Positions 218-53,678 are shown, counted from the stretch's first letter. The stretch: DNA of 64,000 bases from an uncultured Verrucomicrobiae bacterium (GCA_963769025.1 CAVYKI010000009.1:640001-704000); one strand, 5' to 3'. Numbers and translations are program-made. The notes: generated by a model from the sequence alone, not told the origin.

Positions 218-247
218 TTGACTTGGCATCTCACAAATGAGAATAAT
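218..247 (+). promoter_or_regulatory. Putative sigma70-type promoter
   Basis: TTGACT (218-223), 18-nt spacer, AATAAT (242-247), preceded by an AT-rich tract at about 171-215, which is unusual in this GC-rich DNA. Confidence 0.35.
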
Positions 248-370
248 GTGACCTTCGACGATTCAAGGCCAAGACCCCGTCGCCATTTTTCTTTCCGTCA
301 TATTCTGAACCCCAACTTCTCCAGTAAGGGCATCGTCCTTCCAACAAAAACGAACGCGTCGCAAAACACC

Positions 371-2152
371 ATGAACACCCCAAAAATGAAAACAAACACA
401 CCACTGAGGACGGGCATCTGTGCCGCGCTCGTCGCTCTCATCGGAGTCGCCATGCAAGGGGTGGGCTTCGCACTCACTGTGACGAACAATCAGGACAATG
501 CACCCAGCGCGTCGCTCATCACGGGCAGCCTGCGCTGGGCCATCGTCAACACTCCGCCGAACGGGTTGGTCGACTTTTCTTCCTCCTTGAAGGGAAAGAC
601 CATCGTGCTCAAAGCCGGCCAGGTGGTGATTGACAAGGTTTTGACCATCCGGGGCCTCGGATGCGATTTCCTGACGGTCAGCGGCAACAATGTGAGCCGC
701 GTGTTTTATGTGAATGCGACCGGTCTCGCCCCGACGACCATCTCCGACATGACCGTCACCAAAGGCAATGGCACGGGGCCCGACCTCTCGGGCTTTGGCA
801 ATGCCTCCCACGGCGGCGGAATCCACAACGTGGGCAATCTTCAGCTTCTGCGCGTCTGCGTGACCGCCAACAAGTCGCCGCTTGGCAGCGGCGGCGGCAT
901 CTATAACCGAGGCACGCTCAGCGGGCTCACCGACAGCACCGTCTCCTACAATACCGCGGGCCAGAACGGCGGCGGCATCTTCGACGAGCAGGACATGACG
1001 ATCATCCGCAGTTCCATCACCAACAACTCCGCCGGCGGCGACGGTGGCGGCATCCAGGAGGCGGGCACGGCAAATCTGATCAATACGACGATCTCCTCGA
1101 ACACTGCAGCGGGCTCCGGTGGCGGGCTCAACGATCAGGGAGGAACCACGTTGAAGACCTACAACGTGACCATCACCGGCAATACTGCGGCGGTGGGTGG
1201 CGGGATGGCGAACGTGCCGTTCCTTGGCGCTTCGTGGGAGCTTCGCAACACGATCGTGGGCGGCAACAGTGCACCGAATGCGCCGGACGTGAGCAATGCA
1301 TTCGGTTCGCAAATCAGCCAGGGGAACAACCTCATCAAGGTCACCACCGGCGCCCCCTCAGGAAGTTTTGTCGCCAGCGACATCCTCGGTGCAGATCCAC
1401 GGCTCGGCCCCCTTCAGGAAAACGGGGGACCGACGCTGACTCACGCGCTCCTGCCCGGCAGCCCGGCCATCGACAAAGGCAGCAATGGCAACCTGCTCGC
1501 CAGCATGACCACGGATCAGCGGGGCTTCATGATCCGCGTCATCGACGGCGGCCTCAGCCTCACGGTGGACATCGGCGCCTACGAATACACCTCGGCAAAA
1601 GGGCTCAAGAACGAGGCAATCGCCAGTCTTACGGATTGCCTTTCCAGCACGCACTGCAAGACCCGCGTGTGGGCAGCTGCTGCGATCCTCCGCATCCAGC
1701 GCAGTCTGACGCCAGCGTTGTGGGTGACGGGGAGCGACACGACTCTCACGAGGTGTGGGGAACTCGTGTTCGATAAAGAGCAGGAGGCAGCCTATCTCAT
1801 TCAGAAGATCATCAAGTATAGCCCCGACCTGGCATGCGTGCAGTCGGCCACCTACGCGGTCCAGGATCTCGTGCTGGCGGATGAGCAGCTTGCCCGCGAG
1901 GCGATCCGCCTTGCCGTCGCCGCGAACGGCAACGCCAAAAAAATCCAGGACGCGAACAAGGAACTTGTCACCGCCCAGTCATATCTTGCCAAGCAGGACT
2001 ACAAGAAGGCCATCGAGCACTTTAAACATGCATGGGAAAAGGCGCAGGAATCGGTCGGCATCAAGCCGGACGACGACACATGCAAGGCCCTGAAGAAACA
2101 GTGGCAGAACGACGGCGACGACGATGACGACGACGAGGAGGACTGCAATTAA
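371..2152 (+). CDS. Secreted/surface beta-helix protein with choice-of-anchor Q domain, helical C-terminal domain and acidic tail
   Basis: Signal-peptide-like N-terminus (ATG at 371 or 386); repeated GGGI/N-rich PMP-like motifs; DPRLGPLQENGGPTLTHALLPGSPAIDKG...DQRG...DIGAYE choice-of-anchor Q signature; ends NDGDDDDDDEEDCN. Confidence 0.8.
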   Translation: MNTPKMKTNTPLRTGICAALVALIGVAMQGVGFALTVTNNQDNAPSASLITGSLRWAIVNTPPNGLVDFSSSLKGKTIVLKAGQVVIDKVLTIRGLGCDFLTVSGNNVSRVFYVNATGLAPTTISDMTVTKGNGTGPDLSGFGNASHGGGIHNVGNLQLLRVCVTANKSPLGSGGGIYNRGTLSGLTDSTVSYNTAGQNGGGIFDEQDMTIIRSSITNNSAGGDGGGIQEAGTANLINTTISSNTAAGSGGGLNDQGGTTLKTYNVTITGNTAAVGGGMANVPFLGASWELRNTIVGGNSAPNAPDVSNAFGSQISQGNNLIKVTTGAPSGSFVASDILGADPRLGPLQENGGPTLTHALLPGSPAIDKGSNGNLLASMTTDQRGFMIRVIDGGLSLTVDIGAYEYTSAKGLKNEAIASLTDCLSSTHCKTRVWAAAAILRIQRSLTPALWVTGSDTTLTRCGELVFDKEQEAAYLIQKIIKYSPDLACVQSATYAVQDLVLADEQLAREAIRLAVAANGNAKKIQDANKELVTAQSYLAKQDYKKAIEHFKHAWEKAQESVGIKPDDDTCKALKKQWQNDGDDDDDDEEDCN

Positions 2153-2178: not shown

Positions 2179-2214
2179 AGGGCGGCCGGAGTTTTCTCCG
2201 GCCGCCCTTTTTTT
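2179..2214 (+). terminator. Rho-independent terminator
   Basis: Perfect 13-bp stem AGGGCGGCCGGAG/CTCCGGCCGCCCT with a TTTT loop and a T-run, just after the stop at 2152, between convergent genes. Confidence 0.9.
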
Positions 2215-2261: not shown

Positions 2262-3395
2262 TCAGTCGCGCGATCTGGGTGCCGGAGGCAGCGCCACACC
2301 CATGGCTTCCAGGCTCTCGCGGATTCCTCCCAGCAGCCCCGCGAAGTCTCCCGGGGTGAGCTGACCGATCGTGCCGATGCGGAAGCTGTCGCCGTGGGAA
2401 AGCTTGCCCGGATAGATGACGAGGCCGCGCACGGCGAGCCGGTGGCAGAAGTCCTCGAAGTCAAATCGCGGGTCGGCCGGGAAGTGGAAGGCGATGATGA
2501 TCGGGCCTTGCAGTTCCCGGCGGAGGACAGGCCGGAATCCCATCCCCTCCATGCCTGACAAAAGCGTGCGCTGGCTTTCCCGGTAGCGCCTTTCCCGCGC
2601 GGCGACGCCGCCTTCGCGGGTGAGTTGATCGAGTGCCGCGGCGAGGGCGAGGCAGACATGCGTGGGGGGCGTGAATCGGAACTGGCCGCTGCTCTCGAGT
2701 TCGTCCCTCTGCGCTGGCAGATCGAGGCTCACGCTGCGGGCGTGGCCTCGCGCGGCATCGAGGGATGCGCTTCGCGCAATCGCAAAGGCAATGCCGGGGA
2801 CGCCCTCGATGCATTTGTTCGCCGAGGAGATCAGGCAGTCGATGTTCCATCTGGTGACATCCACCGGGATGCCGCCGAAACTGCTCATCGCATCCACCAG
2901 GAAGCGCCGCCCGGCTGCCGCGACGACGGCCCCGATTTCCGCGATGGGGTTGAGGATGCCGGTGGTGGTTTCGCAATGGACGGCAGCGACGTGGGTGACC
3001 TCGGGGTGTGCGGCGAGATGCACTTTTGCGGATCCCGGATCGTTCGGCTCGGTCTCCGGTGCTTCGATGCTGTCCACCGCGATGCCGAGCCGTTGCGCGA
3101 TGCCGATCATCCGGCGGCCGTACGCCCCGTTGGCGAGGACGAGGAGCTTTCCGTCCGGTGGGATGAGCGAGCCGATGGCGGCTTCGATGGCGAAGGTGCC
3201 GCTGCCTTGCATGGGCACTGCCGAGAACTCCGGGCCGGCGCCGGCGATCATCAGCAATTCCTGGCGAATGTGACGGACGATCTGGATGAAGGCCGCATCG
3301 CGCGGGCCCATGTCCCTTTGCATGGCGTCGCGCACGGCGTCGCTCGTGTTGATCGGTCCGGGCGTGAAGAGGCGCTGGCGGATGTGGTCCGTCAT
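2262..3395 (-). CDS. phnW: 2-aminoethylphosphonate aminotransferase (class V PLP; AepZ/PhnW family)
   Basis: LFTPGP, QGSGTFAIEA, VHCETTTG, DAMSSFG, SSANKCIEGVPG (PLP Lys), FRFTPPTH, IYPGKL; ATG overlaps the ppd stop (ATGA). Confidence 0.93.
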   Translation of the reverse strand: MTDHIRQRLFTPGPINTSDAVRDAMQRDMGPRDAAFIQIVRHIRQELLMIAGAGPEFSAVPMQGSGTFAIEAAIGSLIPPDGKLLVLANGAYGRRMIGIAQRLGIAVDSIEAPETEPNDPGSAKVHLAAHPEVTHVAAVHCETTTGILNPIAEIGAVVAAAGRRFLVDAMSSFGGIPVDVTRWNIDCLISSANKCIEGVPGIAFAIARSASLDAARGHARSVSLDLPAQRDELESSGQFRFTPPTHVCLALAAALDQLTREGGVAARERRYRESQRTLLSGMEGMGFRPVLRRELQGPIIIAFHFPADPRFDFEDFCHRLAVRGLVIYPGKLSHGDSFRIGTIGQLTPGDFAGLLGGIRESLEAMGVALPPAPRSRD

Positions 3396-4543
3396 TTCCG
3401 GGTGGCGAGGTATCGCATGAAGCGTTCCTTGATTGCAGGCGGCTTCACCGCGGGCCGGCCGAGTTTCTCCAGCGAGCCAGGGCGGATTTTCAAATGGAGC
3501 AGCGAGGGGCCGGCGTTCGGGCACATCTCCGCAAGACAGGCGGCGAGGTCCTCGGCACGCTCCGCGCTGAAGACGTTTCGGTAGCCCGCCGCCGCGGCGA
3601 TTCGCGCGAAATCAACCGTCGGGGAGACGGTCGCCTGCCCTCCGGTGGAATCGTGCGTTTCATTGTCGAGGATGATGTGGATCAAGCGCTCCGGCTGGTA
3701 GTGGCCGATGGTCGCAAGCGTCCCCATTTTCATGAGCGCCGCGCCGTCACCGTCGAGGATGATGACGCGCTGCCCCGGCAGTGTGTGCGCGATGCCGAGG
3801 CCAATCGCGGACGCGGTGCCCATACCTCCGACGACGTAGAGATTTCCCGGCCGGTCTGAAACGGTGAAGAGTTCGCGCCCGGTCTTGCCAGTCGTGGCCA
3901 CGATGGCGTCGTCGTCGGTGCAGAAGCGAAGGATGTGAGCGATGGCCTTACTGCGCGTGAGTCGCAAGGACGGCGAATCGAAAGGCAGAAGCCGTGCATG
4001 CGCCTTCACTGTGGCGGCTGCCGCGCGCGGCTCTAGCGCGCACGTCGCGAAGGTGTCCTTTTTCAGGATGAAGGCGAAGGGAAGCTGTCGCTCGCGCATG
4101 GAGGCATCGGCTTCGTCGAGGGCGGCATCCATTTCTCCCTGCTCCTCGGGGAACGGCAGCCACGGGATCTCCAGCGTGTCGAGCATCCGCTGCGTGATGC
4201 GGCCCATCAGTTCGTGCTGCGGCTCATCGGCGAGTCCCGGCTCGCCACGCCAGGTGGTGACGAGCAGCGTGGGGATGCGGAATGGATGGTTGAGCGACGT
4301 GAGCGGATTGATCGCGTTTCCGAGTCCCGAGTTTTGGCAAAGGGTCACCGTCTTGCGACCGGCGAGACTGGCGCCGAGGTTGATGCCGATTGCCTCGCCT
4401 TCACTCGTTGCGCCCACGTAGTCGAGTTCGCGGTCGTTGATCACAGCGTTGATCAGCGGCGTCAGGAAGGAGCAGGGGACTCCGGAAAAAAACGAGTATC
4501 CGAGAGCACGCAGCCTCGCGAGAAGCGCCCGTGCTTCGATCAT
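3392..4543 (-). CDS. aepY: Phosphonopyruvate decarboxylase (ThDP-dependent)
   Basis: FFSGVPCSFL, QNSGLGNAINPLTSL, WRGEPG.DEPQHELMG, TTGKTGREL, DGDGAALM ThDP motif, HDSTGGQ; ATGA overlap with the pepM stop. Confidence 0.93.
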   Translation of the reverse strand: MIEARALLARLRALGYSFFSGVPCSFLTPLINAVINDRELDYVGATSEGEAIGINLGASLAGRKTVTLCQNSGLGNAINPLTSLNHPFRIPTLLVTTWRGEPGLADEPQHELMGRITQRMLDTLEIPWLPFPEEQGEMDAALDEADASMRERQLPFAFILKKDTFATCALEPRAAAATVKAHARLLPFDSPSLRLTRSKAIAHILRFCTDDDAIVATTGKTGRELFTVSDRPGNLYVVGGMGTASAIGLGIAHTLPGQRVIILDGDGAALMKMGTLATIGHYQPERLIHIILDNETHDSTGGQATVSPTVDFARIAAAAGYRNVFSAERAEDLAACLAEMCPNAGPSLLHLKIRPGSLEKLGRPAVKPPAIKERFMRYLATRK

Positions 4544-5595
4544 TCCGCGCTGAGTGGGGCGAGGCTGAGCTTCGCGGGCGGACGCTTCGGCCGCGCCGAT
4601 GTTGCCAGCGCGGCTTTCTCCGCACCGTCGGCGATTTTTGCGGACTGGCCGGCGCTGTCGCCAGGAAGGTATCGCCTTTCGGCCTCGGTGAGTTCGTCGG
4701 CGTTCTGGAGGCGGAAGACTTCCTGCAAGGGAGCAATTTCCCCATCGATGCCGGTCACGGACTGTTCCTCGAAGATCTGGCGGCACGTCGCCTGCATCGC
4801 CGCGATCGAACTCCTCAGATTGTGATTTGCCCAGATGACCGTGCTGAATCCGGCTTCGGCGAAAACCGCCGCCGGCGTCCGACTGAAGGTCGTGGGCACC
4901 ACGATGAGCGGGGTGGAGCGATCCCACTCTGAGGCAAAGGCGAGGACCTCGTCTGCGTCAGTCCGCTTGCTGTGCACGAGCAGGGCATCCGCTCCGGCAT
5001 CGGCATACAGGTGCGCGCGGCGAAGAACCTCCGCAATTTCCACTCCCGCAATGAATCCCTCCAGTCGCGCGATGACGCAAAAATCCGCACGGCTTTGCGT
5101 GTCCTTAGCCGCCTTGATCTTTCCGGTGAACTCCATCGGATCCACCAGCTTCTTTTTGCCCTCGCTCAGGGAATTGCGCTTCGGAAAAATCTGGTCTTCG
5201 ATGCACACGCCGTCGATTCCGCGCTGATTGAGCTTCCGCACGAGTCGGCGGACGTTGTTGAAATTCCCAAACCCCGAGTCCCCATCGAGCAGGATCGGCA
5301 GCCGGGTGGCGTCGCGCATGAATTCCACGATTTCGAGCACCTGGGTCCAGCTCGCCTCGTTGCAATCGCGGACGCCGAGCGTGGCCGACATGGAAAGCCC
5401 GCTGGCCCAGATCCCGGCAAAGCCCGCCTCCTCGACGATCTTCGCGCTCAGCCCGTTGTGAGCTTCCATGAAGAACTCCATTTCCCCGGAATACAGCAGT
5501 TCTTTCAGCCCGCGAGGCTGGGGTGGATTGTGATTATGTTTCAAAGGATGGGGGAGGTGGAAGGCTGTCGCAATTCCCTTGCCCGCAACAATCAT
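4540..5595 (-). CDS. pepM: Phosphoenolpyruvate mutase
   Basis: MEAHNGLSAKIVEEAGFAGIWASGLSMS, DCNEASWTQV, LDGDSGFGNFNN, EDQIFPKRNS, WANHNLRS; start uncertain (ATG 5595 or TTG 5544). Confidence 0.92.
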   Translation of the reverse strand: MIVAGKGIATAFHLPHPLKHNHNPPQPRGLKELLYSGEMEFFMEAHNGLSAKIVEEAGFAGIWASGLSMSATLGVRDCNEASWTQVLEIVEFMRDATRLPILLDGDSGFGNFNNVRRLVRKLNQRGIDGVCIEDQIFPKRNSLSEGKKKLVDPMEFTGKIKAAKDTQSRADFCVIARLEGFIAGVEIAEVLRRAHLYADAGADALLVHSKRTDADEVLAFASEWDRSTPLIVVPTTFSRTPAAVFAEAGFSTVIWANHNLRSSIAAMQATCRQIFEEQSVTGIDGEIAPLQEVFRLQNADELTEAERRYLPGDSAGQSAKIADGAEKAALATSARPKRPPAKLSLAPLSAE

Positions 5596-5867
5596 GCTAG
5601 CGGAGGAAGTACTCCGTTCAAGGATGGACTGCCTTCCTGCAGCGGGTTCCATCCCTGCACGTCCGGCAAATTCGAGGTGTCCTGGCGGGCACTGCGTTTC
5701 CTTCCGGCGATGCCATTTGGGTGCAGCAAGGGCGACCGGCTGCTTGACGGCAGCGATGCGGAAAATACCGTGGCGGCCGTGAGCCGTGACGAACATCCAG
5801 CATCAAAGATCAGAGCAGTGCCGGCCCGGTCCATCCGCCAAGGAATGCGCAGCGCGGGGAATTGATC

Positions 5868-7070
5868 ATGTCGCTCTTTTCTTGGCTTGGCATCGGAAAA
5901 GCCAGTCCCGCTCCTTCTGAGCAATCACGGGCTGACCTGACCGGAACTGCAGACCTCCCATCCGTCTTTTGCGATCCGGCCTCGAATAACGCGCGGGACG
6001 CGTTGGACCTCGGAAAAATCCGCATCGTCGAAGATCCCACAGTCGCGGATCTCCTTTGGATGCGGAAGGGGTATCGGGACTGGTTCGGAAAACTCCGGCC
6101 GTTTCAGCTCTTGAATCATTTTCCAAACGAGCGCGCGATGACCGACAAGGGATTCCTCGCAGAGCACCTCGGCAGGTTTTCCAGGAACCAGTCGAAGTAT
6201 GACTTCGGCATGACGGATCTCGTCCAGGAGACCTACTGCCTCTACATTCCGGAAGAGAGGGAGCGTTTCTTCAGCCAGCTTCCGGCTTCTGAATCGAAGG
6301 AGAATCTTTGGATACTCAAGCCCTGCTCCTCGTCCCGCGGCAGGGGCATCCAAATCCTCTGGCAGTTTGATGAGTTGCGCGATGCGTATGCGCATCCCGA
6401 AGAATTCGCATTCGATCCGCAGAAGGACCGCTACGTCATCCAAAGATACATCCGGAACCCGCTGCTGCTCGACGGGCGCAAGTCCGAAATCCGGATCTAC
6501 TGGCTCGTCGCCTCCCTCGATCCGCTCCTCGTCCTCATGTATCGCGAAGGAACGGTGCGGCTGAATACGCAGCCATTCAGCCTCGATGATTTTGAAAATA
6601 CGCTGATCCACGTGACCAATGTGTTTCAGCAAAAGGCCCATCCGGACTACGATCCGTCGGCTGTCTTGAAATGGAGTTTTTCGGATTGGGAAAACTACCT
6701 CATCCAGGATCGGAAGCTCGCGCCGGAGAACTGGGTCGAGGGACACCTGAAGCCGCAGCTCAAGCGCATGCTGTCCTTCGTGGTGGACGCCGCGCGGCCC
6801 ACGCTCTCGCAAGATCTCGGCAACGGACTCCCCTTCGGCCTGTTCGGGGCCGACATCATTTTCGATGACACACTGCATCCCTGGCTCACGGAGGTTCAGA
6901 AGGGACCGGGGCTCAGCTTCGACGACCCGATCAAGCAGAAGGTGATTCCAGCCATGCTGAACGAGGGGATCGCCATCATGCTCGAAGTACGACGCCGCAA
7001 ACGCGACGGCCTCGGATTGGCGCAGCTGGATGCCGTCCAAGGATTCGAGTGGGTGATCCGTGAGACGTGA
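5868..7070 (+). CDS. Tubulin-tyrosine ligase (TTL/TTLL) family ATP-grasp amino acid ligase
   Basis: LNHFP, WILKPCSSSRGRGI, YVIQRYIRNPLLLDGRKSEIRIYWLV, YREGTVR, HVTN, FGLFGADIIFDDTLHPWLTEVQKGP; these follow the ordered TTL-family motifs WIxKP...GxGI, QxYIxxPLLxxGRKFDxRxY, HLTN, FxxxGxDxxxD...PWLxEVN. Confidence 0.85.
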   Translation: MSLFSWLGIGKASPAPSEQSRADLTGTADLPSVFCDPASNNARDALDLGKIRIVEDPTVADLLWMRKGYRDWFGKLRPFQLLNHFPNERAMTDKGFLAEHLGRFSRNQSKYDFGMTDLVQETYCLYIPEERERFFSQLPASESKENLWILKPCSSSRGRGIQILWQFDELRDAYAHPEEFAFDPQKDRYVIQRYIRNPLLLDGRKSEIRIYWLVASLDPLLVLMYREGTVRLNTQPFSLDDFENTLIHVTNVFQQKAHPDYDPSAVLKWSFSDWENYLIQDRKLAPENWVEGHLKPQLKRMLSFVVDAARPTLSQDLGNGLPFGLFGADIIFDDTLHPWLTEVQKGPGLSFDDPIKQKVIPAMLNEGIAIMLEVRRRKRDGLGLAQLDAVQGFEWVIRET

Positions 7071-11288: not shown

Positions 11289-13925
11289 TCATGCCAGTGC
11301 GCCTCCGAATTTCCTTTTCACGATCGCCCTCGCTTCCTCCAGTCCGCGTCCCGCCGGGAGGGCGTAGTAGATGGAGATGTAGGTGTGGTCGCGGGCGGTG
11401 TGGGCGGTGAGGGCGTAGATGTTTCCCTCCAAGTAGCGGAAGACTTTGTAGGTCAGCGCATAGATGAGGCCGCCGGAATCATGGGTGGTCTCGAAGCGAA
11501 GGCAGTGCAGGCCGGGCCGGGATTCGCTGAGCGTGATGCGGCCCTCGATGGGCGGCAGCGAGGCTTCGTCGGCGTCGGCGATGTGGCGTCGGTTGCGGAT
11601 GGCTTCCTCGACGATCGCGGAGAGGTCCTTCCGGAGGGGCAGGGCGCCGGGGGCGAGGTGGAAAAAGTCGAGGGCGAGGCCATGGTTCATCGCTGAGAAA
11701 AGGTGCGCCTGCCGGAGTTCGACCTGGCTTTGCCACAGCGCGCCGCTGATGGATGCGGCCAGCCCGCGGTAGTCCCGGGTGGCGACGCCGACGATGGTCG
11801 AGGTTCCATCGCGGATGATCGCCGCCTTTGGCCCGGCGGTGTCGTCGTCACCGGCGAGGCGGACGAGATGCGCGCCAAAGCGGATCGCATGGAGGCGGTA
11901 GGCGCCGCTGAAGAAATCCTCGCCGATGTCGCGCAGGATGGCGAGTTCATCCTCGCCGTAACCCGCTGCGGCGAGGGAGCCGGAGCGATCCTGTCGCGGA
12001 CGGAAGGTCGCCACGGCCTTTGAGTAAAGCTCACGGATATTCCACCAGCGCACCGGCTCGGCCTGCGCGGATTCCCACTGGGCGCGGTCGGCGCACGTGA
12101 ACACGAAGAGCGCCCGCAACCGCTGCTCATCTCCGCAGCGCCGCGCAAACTCCGCGACCTGCTCCCCGTCGTTGAGGCCGCTTTCGGCGAGTACCTTGAA
12201 AGCGCGCCGGTTTTCCACGAGGAAGCGCGCGACATCCACGGTGACCTGCGGGAACTCGCACTCGGGTGCGTAAGGCGTGAAGTAGTCCGCGAGCGGGATG
12301 CCGGAAACTCCCGAGGCGTGGCGTTCGTGGAGCGGGAGCGTCTCGTCGGTGCGGGCGGCTTCGTCCTCGGGCGTGAGCGGGAGCCGCTTGGTCTTCAGCG
12401 CGAGCTTCACCGCGGCGCGATGATCCGCGTCGAGCAGCGCGGCCTGAATCGCGGGCGCGACGCCTTCCTCGGTGGCGCTGATTTTTTCCGGGGAGACCGC
12501 GGTGGTGAGCCGCTCCGCGCCCTCGGCCACGTAGCGCTCCAGCGCGCGCATCTTTTGCCGCTCCAGCGCGCCGCGCAGGGAATGGCGTTCCCACATCACG
12601 CGGCCGTCGAGCGAGGATTCGAATTTCCCGTAGCCGGGAAAGAGACGGGCCTCGGCACCGTCGATCTGGGAGAGGAACTCGAAGGAATCCGCGAGGCTTC
12701 CGCGGGGCTCATAAAAGAGCGCGGAAACCTCCGGCACGCGCACGAGCCAGTCGCCGGCATTGTGAAAGGTCGCGTGGAGTTCGGCGGGGTCGATCGGCAC
12801 GCCGTAGCGCTGCGAGTCCAGCAGCAGCGAAAGCGCCGCGCGGCTCTTGTCTCGCGCGGTCTCGCAGAAGCCGGAGGTCGCATGCCGCAGGCCGGCAGTG
12901 CCGTAGATCATGGGACTCCCCGGCGACACCGCACGCCCGTGCCTCAGTTCCCGCCCGATCACCGCCCTTGAAAACACCGCCACACGGCGTCGCGCTGCGA
13001 GCAGTCGCGCGCGGACCTCGTCGGCAAATTCAAACCGCGCGCCTTCGTCGCTCCCGGGCCCGAGCATCTCTCCATATGAGACTGAATCCTCGAACCCGAG
13101 CATGTCCTCGGGGTGATTGCCAAAGGCGTCCGGCCTGCCTCCTGGCGGACGGCGCAGGTGCACCCACGCGCGGATGCGCAGCAGGAAATCATACGCCGCC
13201 AGGTCGCGCGGGTCCTCGAGTTCGCGATAGATCTCGTGGCTGTGGACGAATGTTTTCCCGGCAAGCGTCCAGATGCCGCCGAGGAAAACGCGAAGTCCGT
13301 CGTTCTTGATGTCGAAGCGATCCAGCCGCTCGCTTCCCGCGCCCGCGGCCTCCCACTGCTCCTTCCAAAAACCACGCAGGTGCAGGAAATGCCCGAAGGG
13401 ATCGCAGGACTCGCGGATGCGTTCACGGAAGCGCCCGGAAAGCCCGCACGGGTCGTACACCGCACGCATGTCGAGGAAGGAATTGAGCGGCTTGTCCACG
13501 AGCGCTGGCGCGTCATCGAGGCCGAACGGAAGCGCTTCGCAGCGAAAGCCGTGCTGTTCGCGGAATTCGTCCGTGTGCAACGTCTGCCGCTGGAGCTCCA
13601 GCAGGAAGGCATTGCCCTCGATCGCGTCGTCGAAGAGGAACGCGAAATCCAGATCGGAGCACGGCGTGACCTCGCCGCGGCCGGTCCCGCCGAGCGCCAC
13701 GACGGCGAAGGGCTTTGCGTAGCCGAGCGCGCCCTGTTGCGCCTCGGCCCATTGCCCGACGAGCGCCGTGAAAATTGCCGTCCGCGCATTGGCGATCGCG
13801 CGGCCATTCCCCAGATCGGCGCTCCGGATCCGGGCGTCATTTTCCGCGATGAGCCGACGGTGCGCCTCCAGCGGCCCGCACTCGCGGGCCACCTCCAGCA
13901 CTCGGGCTTCGTCTTGGGCGATCAT
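11289..13925 (-). CDS. glnD: Divergent GlnD-like nucleotidyltransferase (NTase - helical - degenerate HD - 2xACT)
   Basis: VALGGTGRGEVTPCSDLDF (Pol-beta NTase motif), DIKNDGLR, AYDFLLRIRAWVH, LFVFTCAD...W..RELY, ACT-like TRDYRGLAASISG...ALDFF and HDSGGLIY; 878 aa, about GlnD length; HD residues not found. Confidence 0.75.
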   Translation of the reverse strand: MIAQDEARVLEVARECGPLEAHRRLIAENDARIRSADLGNGRAIANARTAIFTALVGQWAEAQQGALGYAKPFAVVALGGTGRGEVTPCSDLDFAFLFDDAIEGNAFLLELQRQTLHTDEFREQHGFRCEALPFGLDDAPALVDKPLNSFLDMRAVYDPCGLSGRFRERIRESCDPFGHFLHLRGFWKEQWEAAGAGSERLDRFDIKNDGLRVFLGGIWTLAGKTFVHSHEIYRELEDPRDLAAYDFLLRIRAWVHLRRPPGGRPDAFGNHPEDMLGFEDSVSYGEMLGPGSDEGARFEFADEVRARLLAARRRVAVFSRAVIGRELRHGRAVSPGSPMIYGTAGLRHATSGFCETARDKSRAALSLLLDSQRYGVPIDPAELHATFHNAGDWLVRVPEVSALFYEPRGSLADSFEFLSQIDGAEARLFPGYGKFESSLDGRVMWERHSLRGALERQKMRALERYVAEGAERLTTAVSPEKISATEEGVAPAIQAALLDADHRAAVKLALKTKRLPLTPEDEAARTDETLPLHERHASGVSGIPLADYFTPYAPECEFPQVTVDVARFLVENRRAFKVLAESGLNDGEQVAEFARRCGDEQRLRALFVFTCADRAQWESAQAEPVRWWNIRELYSKAVATFRPRQDRSGSLAAAGYGEDELAILRDIGEDFFSGAYRLHAIRFGAHLVRLAGDDDTAGPKAAIIRDGTSTIVGVATRDYRGLAASISGALWQSQVELRQAHLFSAMNHGLALDFFHLAPGALPLRKDLSAIVEEAIRNRRHIADADEASLPPIEGRITLSESRPGLHCLRFETTHDSGGLIYALTYKVFRYLEGNIYALTAHTARDHTYISIYYALPAGRGLEEARAIVKRKFGGALA

Positions 13926-18525: not shown

Positions 18526-18882
18526 CTACTTGGGCGGAGCGGCCGCGCCGATGTTCGCGGGCTTGGAGATCTCCAGCGCCCCTGCAAAGGTCGCGCCATC
18601 TTCCATCGCGAGACGGAACGTCTTCAGGCTGCCTTGCAGATGCGCGCTCGGCTTCAGGTGGCAGCGCTGCGACACGGACGCTTCGCCATCCACGAGCCCG
18701 GAGCTGGTGAGATTCTCGACCACGATGGACTTCGCGTGGACCTCCGCGCCCTCCGCGATCACGAGCGAACTCCCCTCCACCAGGCTGCCCCGGAACTTGC
18801 CCTCAAACAGCAGTTCCCCTTTGAACTTCAGCGTTCCGGTGACCTCGATGTCTTTTCCCAATCTGCTCTGTACGGTGCTCAT
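18526..18882 (-). CDS. Bactofilin (polymer-forming cytoskeletal protein)
   Basis: LGKDIEVTGTLKFKGELLFEGKFRG...GAEVHA...LAMEDGATFAG beta-solenoid pattern. Confidence 0.85.
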   Translation of the reverse strand: MSTVQSRLGKDIEVTGTLKFKGELLFEGKFRGSLVEGSSLVIAEGAEVHAKSIVVENLTSSGLVDGEASVSQRCHLKPSAHLQGSLKTFRLAMEDGATFAGALEISKPANIGAAAPPK

Positions 18883-19013
18883 GCCGCGCAGCTTCAGCAA
18901 TCGCCCGGCGTTCGGCAACCGCAATCGTTTCCGCCGCTGCAAATGTCCGCGCAAACGCATTCCGGCTTGAAAACCCATTGGCCGTTTGGCGCTCGTGGCG
19001 CGATATTGGCCGC

Positions 19014-24977: not shown

Positions 24978-26988
24978 ATGATTACTGAGACAATTCCGCA
25001 GACCGAACGCGATCCCCTCCCCCGCGCCATCGGGCTCGCGCAGGCAAATCTCCTCCGGCTCCAGCGCGAGGACGGCCACTGGTGCGGCGAGCTGTTCGTC
25101 GATAGCACGCTCGTCAGCGATTACATCGCCTACATGCACTGGGCGGGCGAAGTGGATCCGGTGCTCCAGGAAAAATGCGTCGCGCACATCCGCCGCCGCC
25201 AGCTCCCGGACGGCGGCTGGAACATCTACGAGGGCGGCCCGAGCGAGATCAACGCGACGGTCAAAGCCTACTTCGCGCTGAAGCTCGCCGGGCCACGCGC
25301 CGAATCTGCCCGTGGATGCACGAGGCCCGCGCCGCGGCGCTCCGCCTCGGCGGCATCCCGCGGATGAACACCTACTCGAAGCTCTACCTCGCGCTTCTCG
25401 GACAGTTCCCGTGGAAATATCTGCCGACCGTCCCGCCGGAGATGCTGCTTTTCCCGAAGTGGTTCTTCTTCAACATCTACCAGATGAGCTCGTGGACGCG
25501 CGCGATGCTCATCCCGCTCGCGATCCTGAATCACTTCCAGCCCACGCGCCATCTGCCGCCGGAAGTCGCGCTGCACGAGCTCTACCCCGTCGGCTCCGAG
25601 CAGGCGGACATGCGCCCGCGCTGGCGCAAGCCGCGCTTCTCGTGGCCGAATTTCTTCCTGTGCTGCGACCGCCTGCTGAAACGGCTCCGCCCTTTCCAAA
25701 TCAAGCCGCTGCCGCAAGCGCGCGCTGCGCATGCTGCGAGGACTGGCTGCTCGAACACATCGGCGAAGGCAGCGACGGTCTCGGCGCGATTTTCCCCGCG
25801 ATGCTGAACTCGATCATCGCGCTCAAGGCGCTCGGCTACACCAACGACCATCCCGCTGCTCGCGAAGGCGAAGCGCGACTTCGAGGGACTCTTCGTGGAT
25901 GACCCGACGGACTTCCGCATCCAGCCGTGCCTCTCGCCGGTGTGGGACACGGCCATCACGACCATCGCGCTCGCCGACAGCGGCGTGCCGCCGTCAAACG
26001 ACGGCGCTCCAGCGCGCGGAGCAATGGCTCGCTTTCCAAGGAAGTGCGCATCCGCGGCGATTGGGCGGTGAAGAACCCGCACCCCGAGGCCGAGCGGCTG
26101 GGCGTTTGAATATCGCAACGACTACTACCCCGACACCGACGACACGATGATGGTCCTCATGGCGCTGCGCGCCGCGCGGCCCGACGTCGATTTCGGCGTC
26201 GAGCAATTCAGCGCACGCAGCGCGAAGCCCGCCGCGCCTGCCGACGAGCGCACGGCGATCTACCAGCGCGCGCTGCGCTGGCTCATGAGCTTCCAGTGCA
26301 AGGACGGCGGCTGGGCGGCGTTCGACAAGGACGTGACGCACCGCTGGCTCGAGGACGTTCCCTTTGCCGACCACAACGCGATCCTCGATCCCACGTGCAG
26401 CGACCTCACCGGCCGCGTGCTCGAGCTGCTCGGGAAGATCGGATTCCCGCGCAACGACAAGCGCATCCGCCGCGCCATCAAGCTCATCCAGCGACACGCA
26501 GGATTCCGACGGCTCGTGGTATGGCCGCTGGGGCGTGAATTACATCTACGGCACGTGGCAGGTGCTCCGCGGCCTCCGCAGCATCGGCGAAGACATGCGC
26601 CAGCCGTGGATCGTCCGCGCGCGCGACTGGCTGGAGAGCTGCCAGAACGAAGACGGCGGCTGGGGCGAGACCTGCACGAGCTACGACGACCCGACCTTGA
26701 AGGGCCGCGGCCCGAGCACGCCCTCGCAGACCGCGTGGGCGCTCATGGGCATCATCTCCGCGACCGATTCGTCGCGCCAGGCGGCGTTCGACTGCAAGAG
26801 CATCCGCCGCGGCGTCGAGTTTCTCATCGAGCCGCCAAAATGCCGACGGCTCGTGGCCCGAACCCGAGACGACCGGCACCGGCTTCCCGTGCGTGTTCTA
26901 CCTCAAGTACGACATGTACCGGAACAACTGGCCGCTCATGGCACTGGCCCACTACGCGACGGCCATCGGCGTGCTCAAGCGCGACTGA
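24978..26988 (+). CDS. shc: Squalene-hopene cyclase (multiple frameshifts)
   Basis: QREDGHWCGEL, QLPDGGW, QPCLSPVWDT, YYPDTDDT catalytic motif, QCKDGGWAAFD, GSWYGRWGVNYIYGTW, STPSQTAWAL, GTGFP.VFYLKY. Confidence 0.92.
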
Positions 26989-27002
26989 TTCGCCGCGCCC
27001 GC

Positions 27003-28340
27003 TCAGTCGCGGGCGAGTTCTTCGAGCAGCGCCTTGTTCAGGCGGATTCCTGCCTCGAAGTTTTCGACGGGGAAATTTTCGTCGGGCGCGTGCGCGCGGC
27101 AGTTGGGCAGCGCGAGGCCGAGGAGGAGGGTCTCGACGCCGAGGATTTCGCGGAAGGTGGTCACGATCGGGATGCTGCCGCCTTCACGGATGAGGGCGAG
27201 GTCGTGGCCGGGGAATGACGCGGCGAGCGCGCGCTGTGCGGCCTTTCCATACGCGGAATGCGGGTCGGTGAGGTAAGGTTCGCCGCCGTGGCCGTCGGCG
27301 ATTTCGAGGCGGACACCGGGTGGGCAGTTCGCGGTGAGATGCGCGCGGACCTTCGCGAGGATGTCGGCAGGATGTTGGCCGGGGACGAGGCGGAACGTGA
27401 GTTTCACGAAGGCCTCGCGCGGGATGACGGTCTTGCTGCCGGTGCCCTGGAAGCCGCCGCCGATGCCGTTCACCTCGGCGGTCGGCCGGGCCCATGCGCG
27501 CTCGAGCGTGGTGAAGCCTTCCTCGCCGAACGGATGCGCGGCACCGGTGACAAACAGGAGTTCCTTTTCACCGAATGGCAGGCGCGCCCATGCGTCGCGC
27601 TCCCAGTCCTGGAGCGGCGCGACGCCGTCGTAAAAGCCCGGCACGGCGACACGCCCGTGCGCGTCGTGCAACGTGGCGACGAGACGCGCGACGGCGGTGG
27701 CGGGATTCGCGACCGTGCCGCCGTAGATGCCGCTGTGCAGATCGATGGACGGGCCGTGGACGCGCACTTCCATGGCGGCGATGCCGCGCAGGCCGTAGGT
27801 GAAGGTGGGCGTGCGCGGCGCGATCATGCCGGTGTCGCTGATGGCGATGAGGTCGCAGCGGAGGGCGTCGCGATTCGCGGAAAGGAATTCGGCGAGGTGC
27901 TTGCTGCCGACCTCCTCCTCGCCCTCGATGAGGAAGATGAGATTCACCGGAAGCTCGCCCTTTTCGCGCAGCGTCTCGCCGACGCCGAGGACGTGCGCGA
28001 GGATCTGGCCCTTGTTGTCCGTGGAGCCGCGCGCGTAGATGATGCCATCGCGCACGACGGGCTCGAAGGGCGGCGAGGTCCATTCGGCGAGCGGCTCGAC
28101 GGGCTGCACGTCGTAGTGGCCGTAAATCATGACCGTGCGGCGGCCGGGCTTGTGTTCGTTGCGCGCGGTGATGATGGGATGCCCGCCGGTCGGATGAAGT
28201 TCGGCGGTGAGGCCGATGGCGCGGAGTTTCGCGACGAGCCAGCCGGCGCATTTCGCGACGTCGCCGGCGTGGCGCGGCTCGGTGGAGACGCTGGGGAACC
28301 GGATGAAGGAGAACAGATCGTCGAGGTGCGGACTTTGCAT
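27003..28340 (-). CDS. M20/ArgE-DapE family dipeptidase
   Basis: YGHYDVQP, ARGSTDNKGQ, EGEEEVGS, DLHSG, GGSIP, HAPDE. Confidence 0.92.
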   Translation of the reverse strand: MQSPHLDDLFSFIRFPSVSTEPRHAGDVAKCAGWLVAKLRAIGLTAELHPTGGHPIITARNEHKPGRRTVMIYGHYDVQPVEPLAEWTSPPFEPVVRDGIIYARGSTDNKGQILAHVLGVGETLREKGELPVNLIFLIEGEEEVGSKHLAEFLSANRDALRCDLIAISDTGMIAPRTPTFTYGLRGIAAMEVRVHGPSIDLHSGIYGGTVANPATAVARLVATLHDAHGRVAVPGFYDGVAPLQDWERDAWARLPFGEKELLFVTGAAHPFGEEGFTTLERAWARPTAEVNGIGGGFQGTGSKTVIPREAFVKLTFRLVPGQHPADILAKVRAHLTANCPPGVRLEIADGHGGEPYLTDPHSAYGKAAQRALAASFPGHDLALIREGGSIPIVTTFREILGVETLLLGLALPNCRAHAPDENFPVENFEAGIRLNKALLEELARD

Positions 28341-28450: not shown

Positions 28451-30164
28451 ATGAGCAACGAAACGCCCGCAGCTCCCTCGGCTCCAGCCGCACCTTCCGA
28501 TTTCATCCGCGACATCGTCGCGCAGCATGTCGCCGATGGGAGCTACCCGAACATCCTCACGCGCTTCCCGCCCGAGCCGAATGGCTACCTGCACATCGGC
28601 CACGCAAAATCGATCTGCCTGAACTTCGGAATCGCGCGGGAATTCGGCGGCGCGTGCAACCTGCGCATGGATGACACGAACCCGACGAAGGAGGACGTGG
28701 AGTATGTCGAAAGCATCATCCGCGACGTGGACTGGCTCATCGCCGGCTGGGCGGACGGGGTGAAGACGCCGAAGCTTTTTCACGCGAGCGATTACTTCGA
28801 GCAGCTCTACGAATTTGCGGTGACGCTGATCAAAAAAGGGAAGGCGTTCGTCTGCGACCTCAGCGGCGAACAGGTCGCGGCATACCGCGGCGCGCCGACC
28901 GAACCCGGGCGGCCTTCGCCGAACCGCGACCGCAGCGTGGAGGAAAACCTCGACCTTTTCGCGCGGATGCGCGCCGGGGAATTCGCCGACGGCACGAAGA
29001 CGCTGCGCGCGAAGATCGACATGGCTTCGCCGAACATCCACATGCGCGACCCGGTGCTGTACCGCATCCGCCACACGGAGCATCAGGCGACCGGGAGCAA
29101 GTGGTGCATCTATCCGATGTACGACTACGCGCACTGCCTGAGCGACGCCATCGAGGGGATTTCGCATTCGATCTGCACGCTGGAATTCGAAGTGCACCGG
29201 CCGCTCTACGACTGGCTGGTGGATGAAGTCGGCCTGTGGAATCCGCGCCCGCGCCAGTACGAATTTGCGCGGCTGAGCCTGACCTACACGCTGATGAGCA
29301 AGCGCAAGCTGTTGCAACTCGTGGAGGAAAACATCGTGACCGGTTGGGACGATCCGCGCATGCCGACCATCTGCGGCATGCGCCGCCGCGGCGTGACGGC
29401 GCAGGCGCTGCGCAATTTCGCCTACCACATCGGCGTGACGAAATACATGTCGCTCACGGACGTCGCCGTGCTGGAACACTCGATCCGCGACGACCTGAAT
29501 CGCACCGCACTGCGGCGGCTCGGCGTGCTTGCGTCCGCTGAAGGTGGTGATCATGAATTTTCCTGAAGGCGAGACCGAGATGTGCGCCGCGGTGAACAAT
29601 CCGAATGACGAGACGGCGGGCACGCGCGAGGTGCCGTTCAGCCGCGAGATCTGGATCGAGCAGGACGACTTCATGGAGGTGCCGGCGCCGAAATATTTCC
29701 GCCTGAAGCCCGGTGGCGAGGTGCGGCTGAAATACGCGTTCATCATCAAGTGCAACGGAGTCGTGAAGGACGCGAGCGGCCGGGTGACTGAGCTGCGCTG
29801 CACCGCTGATCTCGAAAGCAAGACGGGCGGGCCGAACGCCGGACGGAAGGTGAAAGGCACGATCCATTGGGTGAGCGCCGCACACGCGATTGACGCCGGG
29901 GTGCGGCTCTACGACCGGCTCTTCACGGAGGCTGAGCCTGAAAAGGACGGGCGCGATTTCAAGACGGTGCTCAACCCGCACTCGCTGGAAGTCATCACGG
30001 CGAAGGTCGAACCTTCGCTGCGCGATGCCACGGCAGACGAGCGCTACCAGTTCGAGCGGCTCGCGTACTTCGCCCTCGATCCCGACTCGAAGCCCGGCGC
30101 TCCGATCTTCAACCGCACCATCACGCTCAAGGACGCCTGGGCGAAGGAAGCCCAGCGCGGCTGA
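28451..30164 (+). CDS. glnS: Glutamine--tRNA ligase (one +1 frameshift near 29529)
   Basis: [18 protein letters not shown] (HIGH), [37 protein letters not shown]. Confidence 0.95.
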
Positions 30165-48100: not shown

Positions 48101-48228
48101 GGGAAATCCACGCGCGGCAGCGCTGCGACGGGCAGGAAAAAATACGCCAGGCCGCCGGCGAGAGCGATCGCCAGGGTCGCAAGCGTCGTCGCCACGGGAC
48201 GCGCAATGGCGATGTCGGTGATTCTCAT
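45100..48228 (-). CDS. mdtC: RND permease MdtC-like
   Basis: [52 protein letters not shown]. Confidence 0.88.
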
Positions 48229-51200: not shown

Positions 51201-51323
51201 ATCGACCTGCGGCAGCGCCGACACCGGCAACAGGCGATACGCCACTGCACCCGCGAGCAGGAGTGCGACCATGAGGAGCGTGGTCGCGATGGGGCGCTCG
51301 ATGAAAACGCGGGATGGATTCAT
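48225..51323 (-). CDS. mdtB: RND permease MdtB-like
   Basis: [53 protein letters not shown]; real start 51323 overlapping the mdtA stop. Confidence 0.9.
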
Positions 51324-52576: not shown

Positions 52577-52857
52577 CGGCAGGAGGATTACAGCCCGTTC
52601 GCAATGGTGAAAAGGACGGATGCACCGAGCTGGCAGACTGCGAACGGCGCGAGTTCTTCGGAGGGAAATGGAAGCCCATCGGCTGCTCCCGGCACGCATG
52701 GCGTTCCGCCGTCGCAACCCCGCGCCGGTTCGTCGGCTTCAGTTTTTGCCTCGTCCTTCGGATGGGGAAACGCCACGGTTCCCGACACACGTCCCGCAGA
52801 CGGCTCCATCGCGTGAGCCGCAGCGGAACCGACACTTTGCAAACCAACCAACCGATC

Positions 52858-53508: not shown

Positions 53509-53678
53509 GGCTCTGCGCCTCGGCCCGCACGAGGGCATTGCACCTTCCAAGGAACCGATGTGTGAGCCGCGCCGCCGGCTCAGGCGTCGGGTACATCGAC
53601 GGCGGCGCACCGTACCGGAGCAATGTGCTGCCTCCCGTTGCGAAAATCCGGGAAGCAGTTAGCGTCCCGCCCTTTTTC

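Follow-up and report, generated by a model that had tools for sequence, protein, structure and literature searches.

A TTL-family ATP-grasp ligase gene linked and fused to bacterial aminoethylphosphonate genes points to a possible attachment of phosphonate to acidic proteins

Canonical installation of 2-aminoethylphosphonate (AEP) begins with PEP mutase (PepM), phosphonopyruvate decarboxylase (Ppd) and a transaminase. The cytidylyltransferase PntC, often fused to PepM, and phosphotransferases then carry the product into phosphonolipids or phosphonoglycans. The module described here has the same three-gene AEP core without PntC. Unlike canonical AEP clusters, neither the module nor the window (the whole 64-kb stretch of DNA that was analysed) contains PntC, LicC, a CDP-alcohol phosphotransferase or a glycosyltransferase. 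A tubulin-tyrosine-ligase-like (TTL/TTLL) ATP-grasp enzyme, proposed from its sequence to be an amide ligase, would occupy the place of PntC and the transferases. AEP would be linked through its amine as a carboxamide, whereas the canonical linkage is a phosphonoester through phosphorus.

ATP-grasp ligases are also found beside phosphonate genes in phosphonopeptide clusters, namely those of the phosphonoalamides and the AEP clusters of Paenibacillaceae with two such ligases, and amide products are predicted there as well (PMC8942020). That paper describes the cluster enzymes as ATP-grasp amino-acid ligases; its main text contains neither "tubulin" nor "TTL", and PF03133 is absent from one of its supplements. 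In contrast, the ligase of the window belongs to the TTL family, and its neighbours point to a protein acceptor. The Paenibacillaceae and phosphonoalamide enzymes presumably belong to the L-amino-acid-ligase families.

The eukaryotic TTL/TTLL enzymes (the glutamylases TTLL6 and TTLL7, the glycylase TTLL3, and TTL) share with the window protein the PF03133 family and fold, the ATP-grasp Lys, the Mg ligands, the donor-binding Arg and Lys and, probably, a preference for acidic tails. However, the window protein is bacterial, is about 23-25% identical to TTLL6 and has no microtubule-binding domain. The third Mg-ligand position in the bacterial family is Gln (invariant Gln346) and not Asn, and the gene lies beside, or is fused to, AEP biosynthesis genes. 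The candidate acceptors encoded nearby are Asp-rich rather than Glu-rich, and they are exported. The gene context speaks for an acceptor other than tubulin and for a donor outside the proteinogenic amino acids. Another bacterial ATP-grasp enzyme acting on an acidic protein C-terminus is RimK, which extends that of ribosomal protein S6 by glutamates (PMC4431377). It differs in belonging to another ATP-grasp family, in having no phosphonate link and in adding a standard amino acid.

Table 1. Coordinates of the AEP genes, the TTL-like gene and adjoining features in the window.
Feature	Position	Strand	Remarks
pepM (PEP mutase)	4540..5595	-	351 aa from ATG at 5595; start uncertain
ppd (phosphonopyruvate decarboxylase)	3392..4543	-	383 aa; TIGR03297; TPP_enzyme_N/C domains
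2-aminoethylphosphonate:pyruvate transaminase (PhnW/AepZ type)	2262..3395	-	377 aa; NF010006, TIGR02326, TIGR03301
TTL/TTLL-family ATP-grasp ligase	5868..7070	+	400 aa; PF03133; proposed AEP:carboxylate amide ligase
Divergent intergenic region pepM/TTL	5596..5867	.	272 bp, assuming the chosen starts
Exported choice-of-anchor-Q protein, candidate acceptor	218..2152	+	644-aa ORF; NF041518
Hairpin + T run	2179..2208	.	13-bp stem, 11 G-C pairs; between convergent genes

All three AEP enzymes passed the equivalog cut-offs of curated HMMs. PepM scored 348.5 bits with TIGR02320 (cut-off 319.55) and 199.6 bits with PF13714, and Ppd scored 428.8 bits with TIGR03297 (cut-off 312.5). The transaminase scored 469.5, 453.1 and 440 bits with NF010006, TIGR02326 and TIGR03301, respectively (cut-offs 296, 400.8 and 360.8). 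Ppd, the coupling enzyme that pulls the unfavourable PepM equilibrium, is encoded alongside pepM. Production of AEP from PEP by PepM, Ppd and the PhnW-type transaminase is thus established from sequence, on the basis of enzyme identity by curated models and established pathway knowledge.

The first-pass annotation had located these four genes, coupled the three AEP genes by two ATGA overlaps and placed about 270 bp between pepM and the divergent TTL-like gene. The positions agreed with ours, and both overlaps were present (...GGAATGATCG..., where the ppd start overlaps the pepM stop, and ...GAAATGACGG... between ppd and the transaminase gene). The intergenic region measured 272 bp with ATG 5595 and ATG 5868 as starts. 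Homologues of the TTL-like protein also begin at the Met of ATG 5868, and for PepM other in-frame ATGs occur upstream, as far as 5796. Between the two genes, a consensus scan detected no sigma-70 consensus site and no Rfam family was matched. The strong hairpin between the acidic-tail gene and the AEP operon is a call of the consensus scan only, in a class that was not enriched (3 sites against 4.3 expected from shuffles). The same annotation had seen no nucleotidyltransferase, CDP-alcohol phosphotransferase or glycosyltransferase beside the cluster. This can be extended to 64 kb, because Pfam scans of the window ORFs (10 in one set, 43 in another) revealed no LicC/PntC-type nucleotidyltransferase and neither of the other two classes. 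The sole nucleotidyltransferase-like signal was a weak GlnD/DUF294 match (E = 4.8e-5) in an 878-aa ORF at 11289..13925.

The TTL-like protein matched PF03133 with 166.3 bits (cut-off 20.1, E = 1.1e-48) over residues 80-371, that is, profile positions 7-281 of 292. TTL was the only Pfam family above its cut-off (ATPgrasp_YheCD reached 21.3 bits, under 26.8), and no NCBIfam model matched. Among solved structures, its sequence matched 5vlq (deposited as "LOC100158544 protein", which we take to be TTLL3; 1.4e-38), TTLL6 (1.6e-34) and TTLL7 (7.6e-34). An AF2 model had a pLDDT of 92.3 and a pTM of 0.89. The best Foldseek matches of this model were all TTLL6, TTL or TTLL11, with TM 0.73 to 6vzq_A (TTLL6) and about 0.69 to TTL. 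By HMM, sequence and structure model, the protein is a true TTL/TTLL-family ATP-grasp enzyme, as first annotated. The accompanying statement that such enzymes are mainly eukaryotic needs correcting: the bacterial TTL family is conserved, with about 50% identity, across seven phyla, and is not a rare eukaryote-like oddity. Residues K153, D331, E344, R233 and K270, which bind nucleotide, Mg or donor in this family, were invariant in all 27 family sequences. The position that is Arg in side-chain initiases and Gln in elongases was Arg or Lys in 22 of the 27.

We then counted AEP genes beside bacterial TTL homologues, and the pairing seen in the window recurred. Of the 28 TTL-family loci fetched, 7, from Verrucomicrobiota, Nitrosomonas and Chlamydiales, had the pepM-ppd-transaminase triad directly next to the TTL gene. 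Five of them had the co-directional order TTL, pepM, ppd, transaminase (L011, L012, L013, L014 and L017, the last with overlapping TTL stop and pepM start), and two were divergent as in the window (L002 and L023). All-against-all neighbour clustering showed that the three AEP genes were the only neighbours common to several phyla, and no cytidylyltransferase, phosphotransferase or glycosyltransferase was conserved among the seven linked loci. To place AEP adjacency on the TTL tree, 4 or more gains or losses are needed, which rules out a single accident of inheritance.

Fusion proteins from metagenomes connect the same enzymes. TTL::PepM fusions fell into three clusters at 90% identity and extended down to 71% identity (P0146, P0272 and P0273, with 5, 5 and 4 member sequences). 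P0137 is a Ppd::TTL fusion (TIGR03297, 318.8 bits against 312.5), and P0121 joins TTL to a PhnW-like domain (E = 3.5e-18). Other PepM fusions in the same search were mostly to PF12804 cytidylyltransferase, the known installing or activating partner (PMC8942020). In canonical systems and the TTL module alike, PepM can be fused to the enzyme that next handles the phosphonate (PMC8942020), which for the TTL would be its predicted role. Taken together, linkage and fusions place the TTL-AEP pairing far beyond chance, and a functional tie of the TTL to AEP is very probable. The computational checks suggested in the first-pass annotation, on family, structure and co-localisation, all turned out in its favour. 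A literature search found no paper on this gene link.

Proteins with poly-acidic tracts were encoded near the ligase. The choice-of-anchor-Q protein of the window (NF041518, 77.5 bits against a cut-off of 25) ends ...DGDDDDDDEEDCN. Its poly-acidic tail, read from the translation as ...QNDGDDDDDDEEDCN, lies at 2108..2149, and its likely start is an internal Met 5' of a hydrophobic signal-like segment. With at least 6 Asp in 8 residues as the criterion for open frames, 9 of 29 loci had a poly-Asp frame no more than 3 kb from the TTL(+AEP) cluster (the window, L004, L005, L009, L010, L011, L013, L014 and L026), whereas only 1 locus had such a frame in the 300 kb beyond that distance (one-sided binomial, p = 3e-4). 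Signal-peptide-like or lipobox N-termini were present in eight of these nine proteins, and most tracts were at or close to the C-terminus. On the other side, no poly-Asp gene was present in the fetched sequence of four of the eight pepM-linked loci (L002, L012, L017 and L023). The enrichment of exported poly-Asp proteins beside the TTL gene supports a protein carboxylate as acceptor, which the first-pass annotation had suggested without this evidence; that the acceptor is the poly-Asp protein itself is a tentative assignment. Because these proteins are exported, and the ligase is ATP-dependent with no signal peptide visible at its N-terminus, modification would have to precede export, which counts against them as acceptors.

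The use of AEP as the amine, the formation of an amide and the identity of the acceptor are all inferred from sequence and gene context. We lean, without great confidence, towards a four-gene module in which the TTL-like ligase amidates carboxylates with AEP, probably those of Asp-rich tracts or tails; AEP as the ligated amine is somewhat probable. The divergently transcribed ligase would be the AEP-consuming step. It would activate a carboxylate as an acyl-phosphate with ATP, as its eukaryotic relatives do, and the AEP amine would then attack the acyl-phosphate. This would leave an N-(2-phosphonoethyl) amide and a mass shift of about +107 Da at each modified site. As acceptors, carboxylates within Asp-rich tracts of exported proteins, at side chains or at the C-terminus, seem most likely; they would be modified in the cytoplasm ahead of export, and the candidate in the window is the choice-of-anchor-Q protein. 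The outcome would be surface proteins with a dense, phosphatase-resistant phosphonate patch. It is conceivable, and we advance it with reserve, that bacterial TTLL homologues use ATP to amidate carboxylates in the poly-Asp tracts or tails of exported proteins with AEP as a new post-translational modification, protein "AEP-ylation". If true, phosphonate could be bound to protein without any glycan or lipid carrier, which would lead directly to the protein-associated phosphonate observed in marine cells. Decoration of acidic tails with anionic amines would then be suggested as the ancestral job of the TTLL fold. The linkage and fusions point to a so far undescribed phosphonate attachment to acidic proteins.

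The ligase might instead take a free amino acid or a short peptide as partner for AEP, giving for example aspartyl- or gamma-glutamyl-AEP, so that the four genes would make a soluble phosphonate metabolite or natural product and not a modified protein. The compact four-gene operon and the fusions to pathway enzymes resemble a metabolic pathway. At the counterpart of TTLL6 H362, a residue that pairs with a free carboxylate adjoining the reacting one, 18 of the 27 sequences have Lys, and this also favours such a product. Phosphonopeptide clusters already contain known or predicted ATP-grasp ligases, which in Paenibacillaceae flank AEP cores (PMC8942020). However, the solved-structure matches were only protein-modifying TTL/TTLL enzymes and not L-amino-acid-ligase families. 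No characterised TTL-family enzyme is known to act on anything but proteins. No exporter or resistance gene was conserved with the module among the loci, and the enrichment of exported poly-Asp proteins would be left unexplained. We consider a small-molecule product unlikely.

Glutamate or a similar common amino acid could also be the donor, added to Asp-rich tails, with the AEP genes adjoining through a common envelope target and AEP installed by enzymes encoded elsewhere. Mapping on TTLL6 bears on this point: R233 corresponds to the donor-binding Arg (R241) and K270 to the Lys that holds the anionic side chain of the donor (K283). The invariant K270 fits an anionic amine donor such as AEP would be, and the two residues together form the glutamylase donor signature, so glutamate appears to fit the pocket equally well. 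The second glutamylase Lys (K377) aligns to Ile in the window protein. Furthermore, no pepM, ppd or phnW was found within the fetched flanks of 21 of the 28 loci, although three of these (L001, L018 and L028) have too little sequence on one or both sides for a judgement. The TTLs of these loci are the same in conserved residues, and no alignment column cleanly separated pepM-adjacent TTLs from the others (one weak column, position 377). Thus, either unlinked genomes make AEP elsewhere or the donor of the family is a common metabolite. Poly-Asp neighbours also occur in pepM-free loci (L004, L005, L009, L010 and L026). Nevertheless, a glutamylase gives no reason for TTL fusions to PepM, Ppd and a PhnW-like domain or for translationally coupled TTL-pepM operons, and neither the modules nor the 64-kb window offered another AEP-using gene. 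This explanation seems to us quite unlikely.

Amidation of uronic-acid carboxylates of a surface polysaccharide with AEP would parallel the Campylobacter capsule, where an ATP-dependent amidoligase uses ethanolamine phosphate or serinol phosphate. Some loci carry glycan genes nearby: L002 has a Polysacc_synt flippase downstream of the TTL, the module of L017 is followed by three GT2 genes, and in L007 an IspD-like cytidylyltransferase, a glycerophosphotransferase and a GT2 lie upstream of the TTL. However, the loci do not share these genes and the window has none of them, and the protein has the fold and sequence of a protein-tail ligase, which makes a glycan acceptor improbable. That the protein is a eukaryote-like effector secreted into a host to modify tubulin, with incidental pepM adjacency, is hardly credible: TTL-domain and SET-domain proteins do appear in papers on Legionella longbeachae and the Riftia symbiont, and some loci are from Chlamydiales and Thiotrichales, but AEP linkage and fusions are far beyond chance, the family is also found in organisms whose names place them in free-living groups (Nitrosomonas, Chthoniobacter, Sorangium and Bryobacterales), and the N-terminus of the window protein shows no secretion signal.

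A point against the proposed module is that the PepM of the window, a predicted PEP mutase, reads EDQIFPKRNS at the family motif EDKX5NS and so departs from the Ppm-specific motif, which serves as a Ppm filter in PMC8942020. The PepM of L002 (EDQVFPKRNS) likewise has EDQX5NS rather than the defining form, and EDK is kept in the other six linked PepMs and in the fusion P0146. Because EDQ is conserved in two PepMs that are ~69% identical, it is not a sequencing error. L002 also encodes the phosphonoacetaldehyde hydrolase PhnX 3' of its transaminase gene, so that, at least there, the module also degrades the pathway intermediate.

The pepM, ppd and AEP transaminase genes of the window (AEP, 2-aminoethylphosphonate) form a row with an ATGA overlap at both junctions, and they face a gene for a TTL/TTLL-family ATP-grasp protein across a divergent spacer of 272 bp, given the chosen starts. 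The PepM start is uncertain because more in-frame ATGs lie upstream. The closest relatives were found in a Chthoniobacteraceae MAG for the TTL-like protein (78% identity) and in a Chthoniobacter MAG for Ppd (83%). Scanning 10 and 43 ORFs of the window with Pfam turned up neither a PntC/LicC cytidylyltransferase nor a CDP-alcohol phosphotransferase, a glycosyltransferase or a gene of phosphonate catabolism across the 64 kb; the sole nucleotidyltransferase-like signal was a weak GlnD/DUF294 match. An Rfam scan of the entire window returned no family, and no sigma-70 consensus promoter was seen within the divergent region. The domain content of the window, which includes PSD/PSCyt, DUF1501 and choice-of-anchor domains, and the closest relatives indicate a Chthoniobacterales-like member of the Verrucomicrobiota.

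Features in the window and in TTL-family loci (L numbers), with family matches as score vs cut-off where available
Feature	Sequence	Coordinates	Strand	Match or remark
PepM (PEP mutase)	window	5595..4540	-	TIGR02320, 348.5 vs 319.55 bits; EDQX5NS
Ppd (phosphonopyruvate decarboxylase)	window	4543..3392	-	TIGR03297, 428.8 vs 312.5 bits
AEP:pyruvate transaminase	window	3395..2262	-	NF010006, 469.5 vs 296 bits
TTL/TTLL-family protein	window	5868..7070	+	PF03133, 166.3 vs 20.1 bits, E=1.1e-48; no NCBIfam model matched
Exported choice-of-anchor-Q protein	window	218..2152		adjoins transaminase
ORF of 878 aa	window	11289..13925		weak GlnD/DUF294 match
Bactofilin	window	18526-18978	-	PF04519, E=2.2e-20
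Split or oddly joined genes	window	25175-27193; 28451-30164; 53217-56415; 48225-53393
PepM	L002	8662-9693	-	EDQX5NS
PhnX (phosphonoacetaldehyde hydrolase)	L002	5590-6378	-	TIGR01422, 298 vs 220 bits
Cys-bearing acidic tract	window	2108-2149
Cys-bearing acidic tract	L005	9016-9144
Cys-bearing acidic tract	L009	8998-9147
Cys-bearing acidic tract	L010	12982-13038
Tandem TTL paralogues and flanks	L003	4924-17159
TTL, apparently interrupted	L007	9959-11122		ORFs of 106 and 266 aa
PKMT-type protein lysine methyltransferase	L007	11990-13648	+	adjoins TTL
SET gene and zinc-ribbon ORF	L015	1230-1886	+	upstream of TTL
TTL, truncated	L027	9959-10570		203 aa; query residues 33-246

The first-pass annotation had called the divergent gene product tubulin-tyrosine-ligase-like, and both the HMM search and structure prediction bear this out. 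With a profile of 33 family members, the solved structures matched were 5vlq (1.4e-38), which we take to be TTLL3, TTLL6 (1.6e-34), TTLL7 (7.6e-34) and TTL (about 1e-26). The AlphaFold2 model, built with 106 sequences, had a mean pLDDT of 92.3 and a pTM of 0.89; its best structural matches were all TTLL6 (TM 0.73), followed by TTL and TTLL11. The assignment is therefore solid. Bacterial members are by no means rare: a word-indexed search found 249 proteins, with identities between phyla typically near 50%, and a profile search against 1.84 billion representatives found 1917 at E ≤ 1e-30, among which about 25 clusters make up the close family and the remainder grades into the wider TTL superfamily. 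This conserved bacterial family is present in seven phyla. Look-alikes in the ESM Atlas were generic TTL clusters only and gave no new lead.

We then examined the genes around TTL in 28 loci, obtained by scanning species-representative genomes once with the TTL family alignment. The association with pepM and ppd suggested by the first-pass annotation recurred: in tblastn searches with the window proteins, the AEP triad directly adjoined TTL in 7/28 loci. The order TTL-pepM-ppd-transaminase was co-directional in Verrucomicrobiia (L011), Nitrosomonas (L012), two Verrucomicrobiota (L013 and L014, near-identical and counted as one lineage) and Puniceicoccaceae (L017), with TTL-pepM gaps from a 4-bp overlap to about 160 bp; it was divergent, as in the window, in Chthoniobacter (L002) and Chlamydiales (L023). 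None of the three genes was detected by tblastn in the fetched flanks of the other 21 loci, of which three (L001, L018, L028) have at least one flank of insufficient length for a judgement. When all predicted neighbours within 6 kb were clustered, the triad was the only set of neighbours common across phyla, and every other shared neighbour was synteny inside one clade. The pepM-free loci shared no theme when 91 and 73 neighbour proteins were scanned with Pfam. The pepM-adjacent members occupy three well-supported parts of a maximum-likelihood tree built from 27 TTL proteins, on which pepM adjacency requires at least four changes. PMC8942020 places pepM in about 5% of bacterial genomes; such repeated immediate adjacency cannot be due to chance.

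Scanning of long family members revealed three fusion architectures. A TTL::PepM protein of 674 aa (P0146) carries the EDK motif and has TIGR02320 as its best match, under the cut-off (273 bits, E=2e-81). A Ppd::TTL protein of 743 aa (P0137) matches TIGR03297 with 318.8 bits against 312.5, and a TTL::PhnW-like protein of 708 aa (P0121) shows a weak, partial match (E=3.5e-18). A homologue search placed TTL::PepM in three clusters at 90% identity, which contain 5, 5 and 4 sequences and share 100%, 84% and 71% identity with P0146; the fusion is thus a conserved one and no artefact of assembly. Among the best 120 matches listed in this search, 114 joined PepM to a PF12804 cytidylyltransferase, the known arrangement for nucleotidyl activation of phosphonates (PMC8942020). 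Thus, the TTL domain holds the position of the canonical installing enzyme.

Apart from genes with poly-Asp tracts, no conserved small ORF or precursor peptide emerged around TTL from a tblastx comparison. In L011, L013 and L014 these genes lie upstream of TTL on the opposite strand and encode signal-peptide proteins with extended tracts of (DDDK)n or (DDDN)n/poly-D; in L013 and L014 the module has another acidic-tailed protein on its opposite flank. A six-frame scan extended the observation to pepM-free loci. Two Sorangium loci (L005, L009) contain, divergent from TTL, a gene for a (DDDDDH/R)n lipoprotein; a Bryobacterales locus (L010) contains a 437-aa protein with the C-terminal end CPIDDDDGDDDDDDDGGDD; L004 contains a flagellar-hook-associated-like protein with GDGDDDDDDGG; and L026 contains a DUF3570 protein. 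In the window, the exported choice-of-anchor-Q protein beside the transaminase ends in QNDGDDDDDDEEDCN. We applied one constant threshold, namely 6 or more Asp per stretch of 8 residues in open frames of 40 codons or longer. Tracts of this kind lay no more than 3 kb from the TTL(+AEP) cluster in 9/29 loci (147 kb; the window included) and occurred in only one locus in the remaining 300 kb (one-sided binomial, p = 3e-4); merging near-identical lineages gave 7 vs 1. The fetched DNA of four pepM-linked loci (L002, L012, L017, L023) contained no such tract. A complex prediction for the TTL-like protein with the C-terminal 70 residues of the acidic-tailed window protein (score 0.02, mark 0.32) bears neither way, and the ligase pI is mixed (4.9 to 9.5; window protein 5.5) and uninformative on acidic-substrate binding. 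In four poly-Asp proteins, Cys residues lie within the acidic tract or immediately next to it (...EEDCN, HDCDDDDD, DDDDDCDD, LLCPIDDDD).

The active site was read against TTLL6 by HMM alignment to 6vzq_A (chain index + 50 = TTLL6 numbering; own residues numbered in the 402-aa ORF), with residue roles from the structural paper bioRxiv 10.1101/2020.06.07.139295. R241, which binds the donor α-carboxylate, corresponds to R233 (27/27). K283, which binds the anionic donor side chain in glutamylases and is hydrophobic or polar in glycylases and Glu in TTL, corresponds to K270 (27/27). The second Lys on the donor side chain, K377, is Ile here, with an invariant Lys (K358) four residues earlier. Q180, which is Gln in elongases and Arg in side-chain initiases, corresponds to R159 (Arg in 17/27, Lys in 5/27), and H362, which pairs with the free carboxylate beside the reacting one, to K347 (Lys in 18/27). 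The pocket therefore suits side-chain (isopeptide-type) chemistry with an anionic amine. AEP fits, but glutamate or phosphonoalanine would fit as well, so the donor is left undecided by the pocket. Only one alignment column, position 377, weakly separates pepM-adjacent TTLs from the others.

The simplest account of the linkage, the fusions, the poly-Asp neighbours and the active site is that the enzyme consumes AEP in an ATP-dependent amidation of a carboxylate, which would yield an N-(2-phosphonoethyl) amide. The acceptors would most probably be Asp-rich tracts or tails of proteins exported later, modified before export. What the sequences show are the identities of the enzymes, their linkage, the fusions and the enrichment of acidic neighbours; the donor, the amide product, the poly-Asp acceptors and the timing of the modification are inferred. 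However, several observations stand against AEP amidation: 21 loci have no nearby pepM and their TTLs are indistinguishable; the pocket has a glutamylase-like Lys; exported acceptors pose a topology problem; the PepMs of the window and L002 carry an EDQ variant; and in L002 PhnX directly follows the transaminase. The L002 row pepM-ppd-phnW-phnX thus combines, in a single operon, enzymes of synthesis and of breakdown for a shared intermediate. That the feature represents a new protein modification appears possible rather than probable. A soluble AEP-amide metabolite would share the donor and involve no exported acceptor; set against the poly-Asp neighbours, it seems unlikely. Slightly less probable again is a plain glutamylase with an indirect AEP-gene neighbourhood, to which the pocket Lys and the pepM-free loci would point and against which the fusions weigh. 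Uronate amidation of a glycan is improbable, and a host-tubulin effector is highly improbable beside the AEP linkage.

The EDQ variant concerns the motif EDQX5NS, found in the PepMs of the window and L002 in place of the Ppm-specific EDKX5NS; EDK is present in the other six TTL-linked PepMs. The phosphonate gene inventory in PMC8942020 filtered Ppm by EDKX5NS. Both EDQ proteins would therefore be dropped by such inventories, in which EDQ-type clusters may thus be undercounted.

AEP is the commonest natural phosphonate and, to our knowledge, its described installation proceeds only via CMP activation onto lipids and glycans. If the ligase joins AEP by its amine, a second route with different chemistry would be added, and if the acceptor is a protein, also a new modification. 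TTLL-type carboxylate amidation is known already, as are ATP-grasp ligases in phosphonate clusters; PMC8942020 reports the latter beside AEP cores in Paenibacillaceae. The words "tubulin" and "TTL" are absent from its main text, and PF03133 from the one text supplement examined. In full-text searches of the open-access literature, mainly of main texts, no publication linked TTL-family proteins to phosphonate genes; the single candidate, the Borg preprint, proved to be unrelated. In Acker et al. (PMC8931226), phosphonate of Prochlorococcus SB was recovered in the protein fraction, with phosphonoglycoproteins proposed as the sole explanation; our finding bears on this open question. It also gives the bacterial TTLL family its first functional lead and, in poly-Asp tails, a testable substrate class.

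Some further observations were made on the family. SET-domain::TTL fusions (P0072, P0075), the separate SET gene of L015 and the methyltransferase of L007 give a second hint of protein modification. More distant TTL-domain proteins (P0122, P0165) are fused to Temptin_C. L003 contains a tandem pair of TTL paralogues that share 63-64% identity with the window protein. An AMP-binding enzyme, a C39-peptidase ABC exporter and a second ABC transporter flank the pair, a layout that looks like a peptide-modification and export cluster. The TTLs of L007 and L027 may be decaying copies or assembly errors. TTL is nearly identical between a MAG labelled Akkermansia muciniphila (L006) and a Lake Baikal Pedosphaera MAG (L008), and their neighbourhoods (topoisomerase, integrase, TTL, GluRS) are identical; one of the two taxon labels is probably wrong.

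Several window genes are split or oddly joined, which could be due to frameshift errors or pseudogenes. The squalene-hopene cyclase has its N- and C-terminal domains on separate ORFs, the Glu/Gln-tRNA synthetase has its catalytic and anticodon domains on two overlapping ORFs, RapA is spread over two overlapping ORFs, and a 1722-aa ORF has an AcrB domain only from residue 694. The bactofilin gene, beside two ORFs without a family, is unrelated to the finding.
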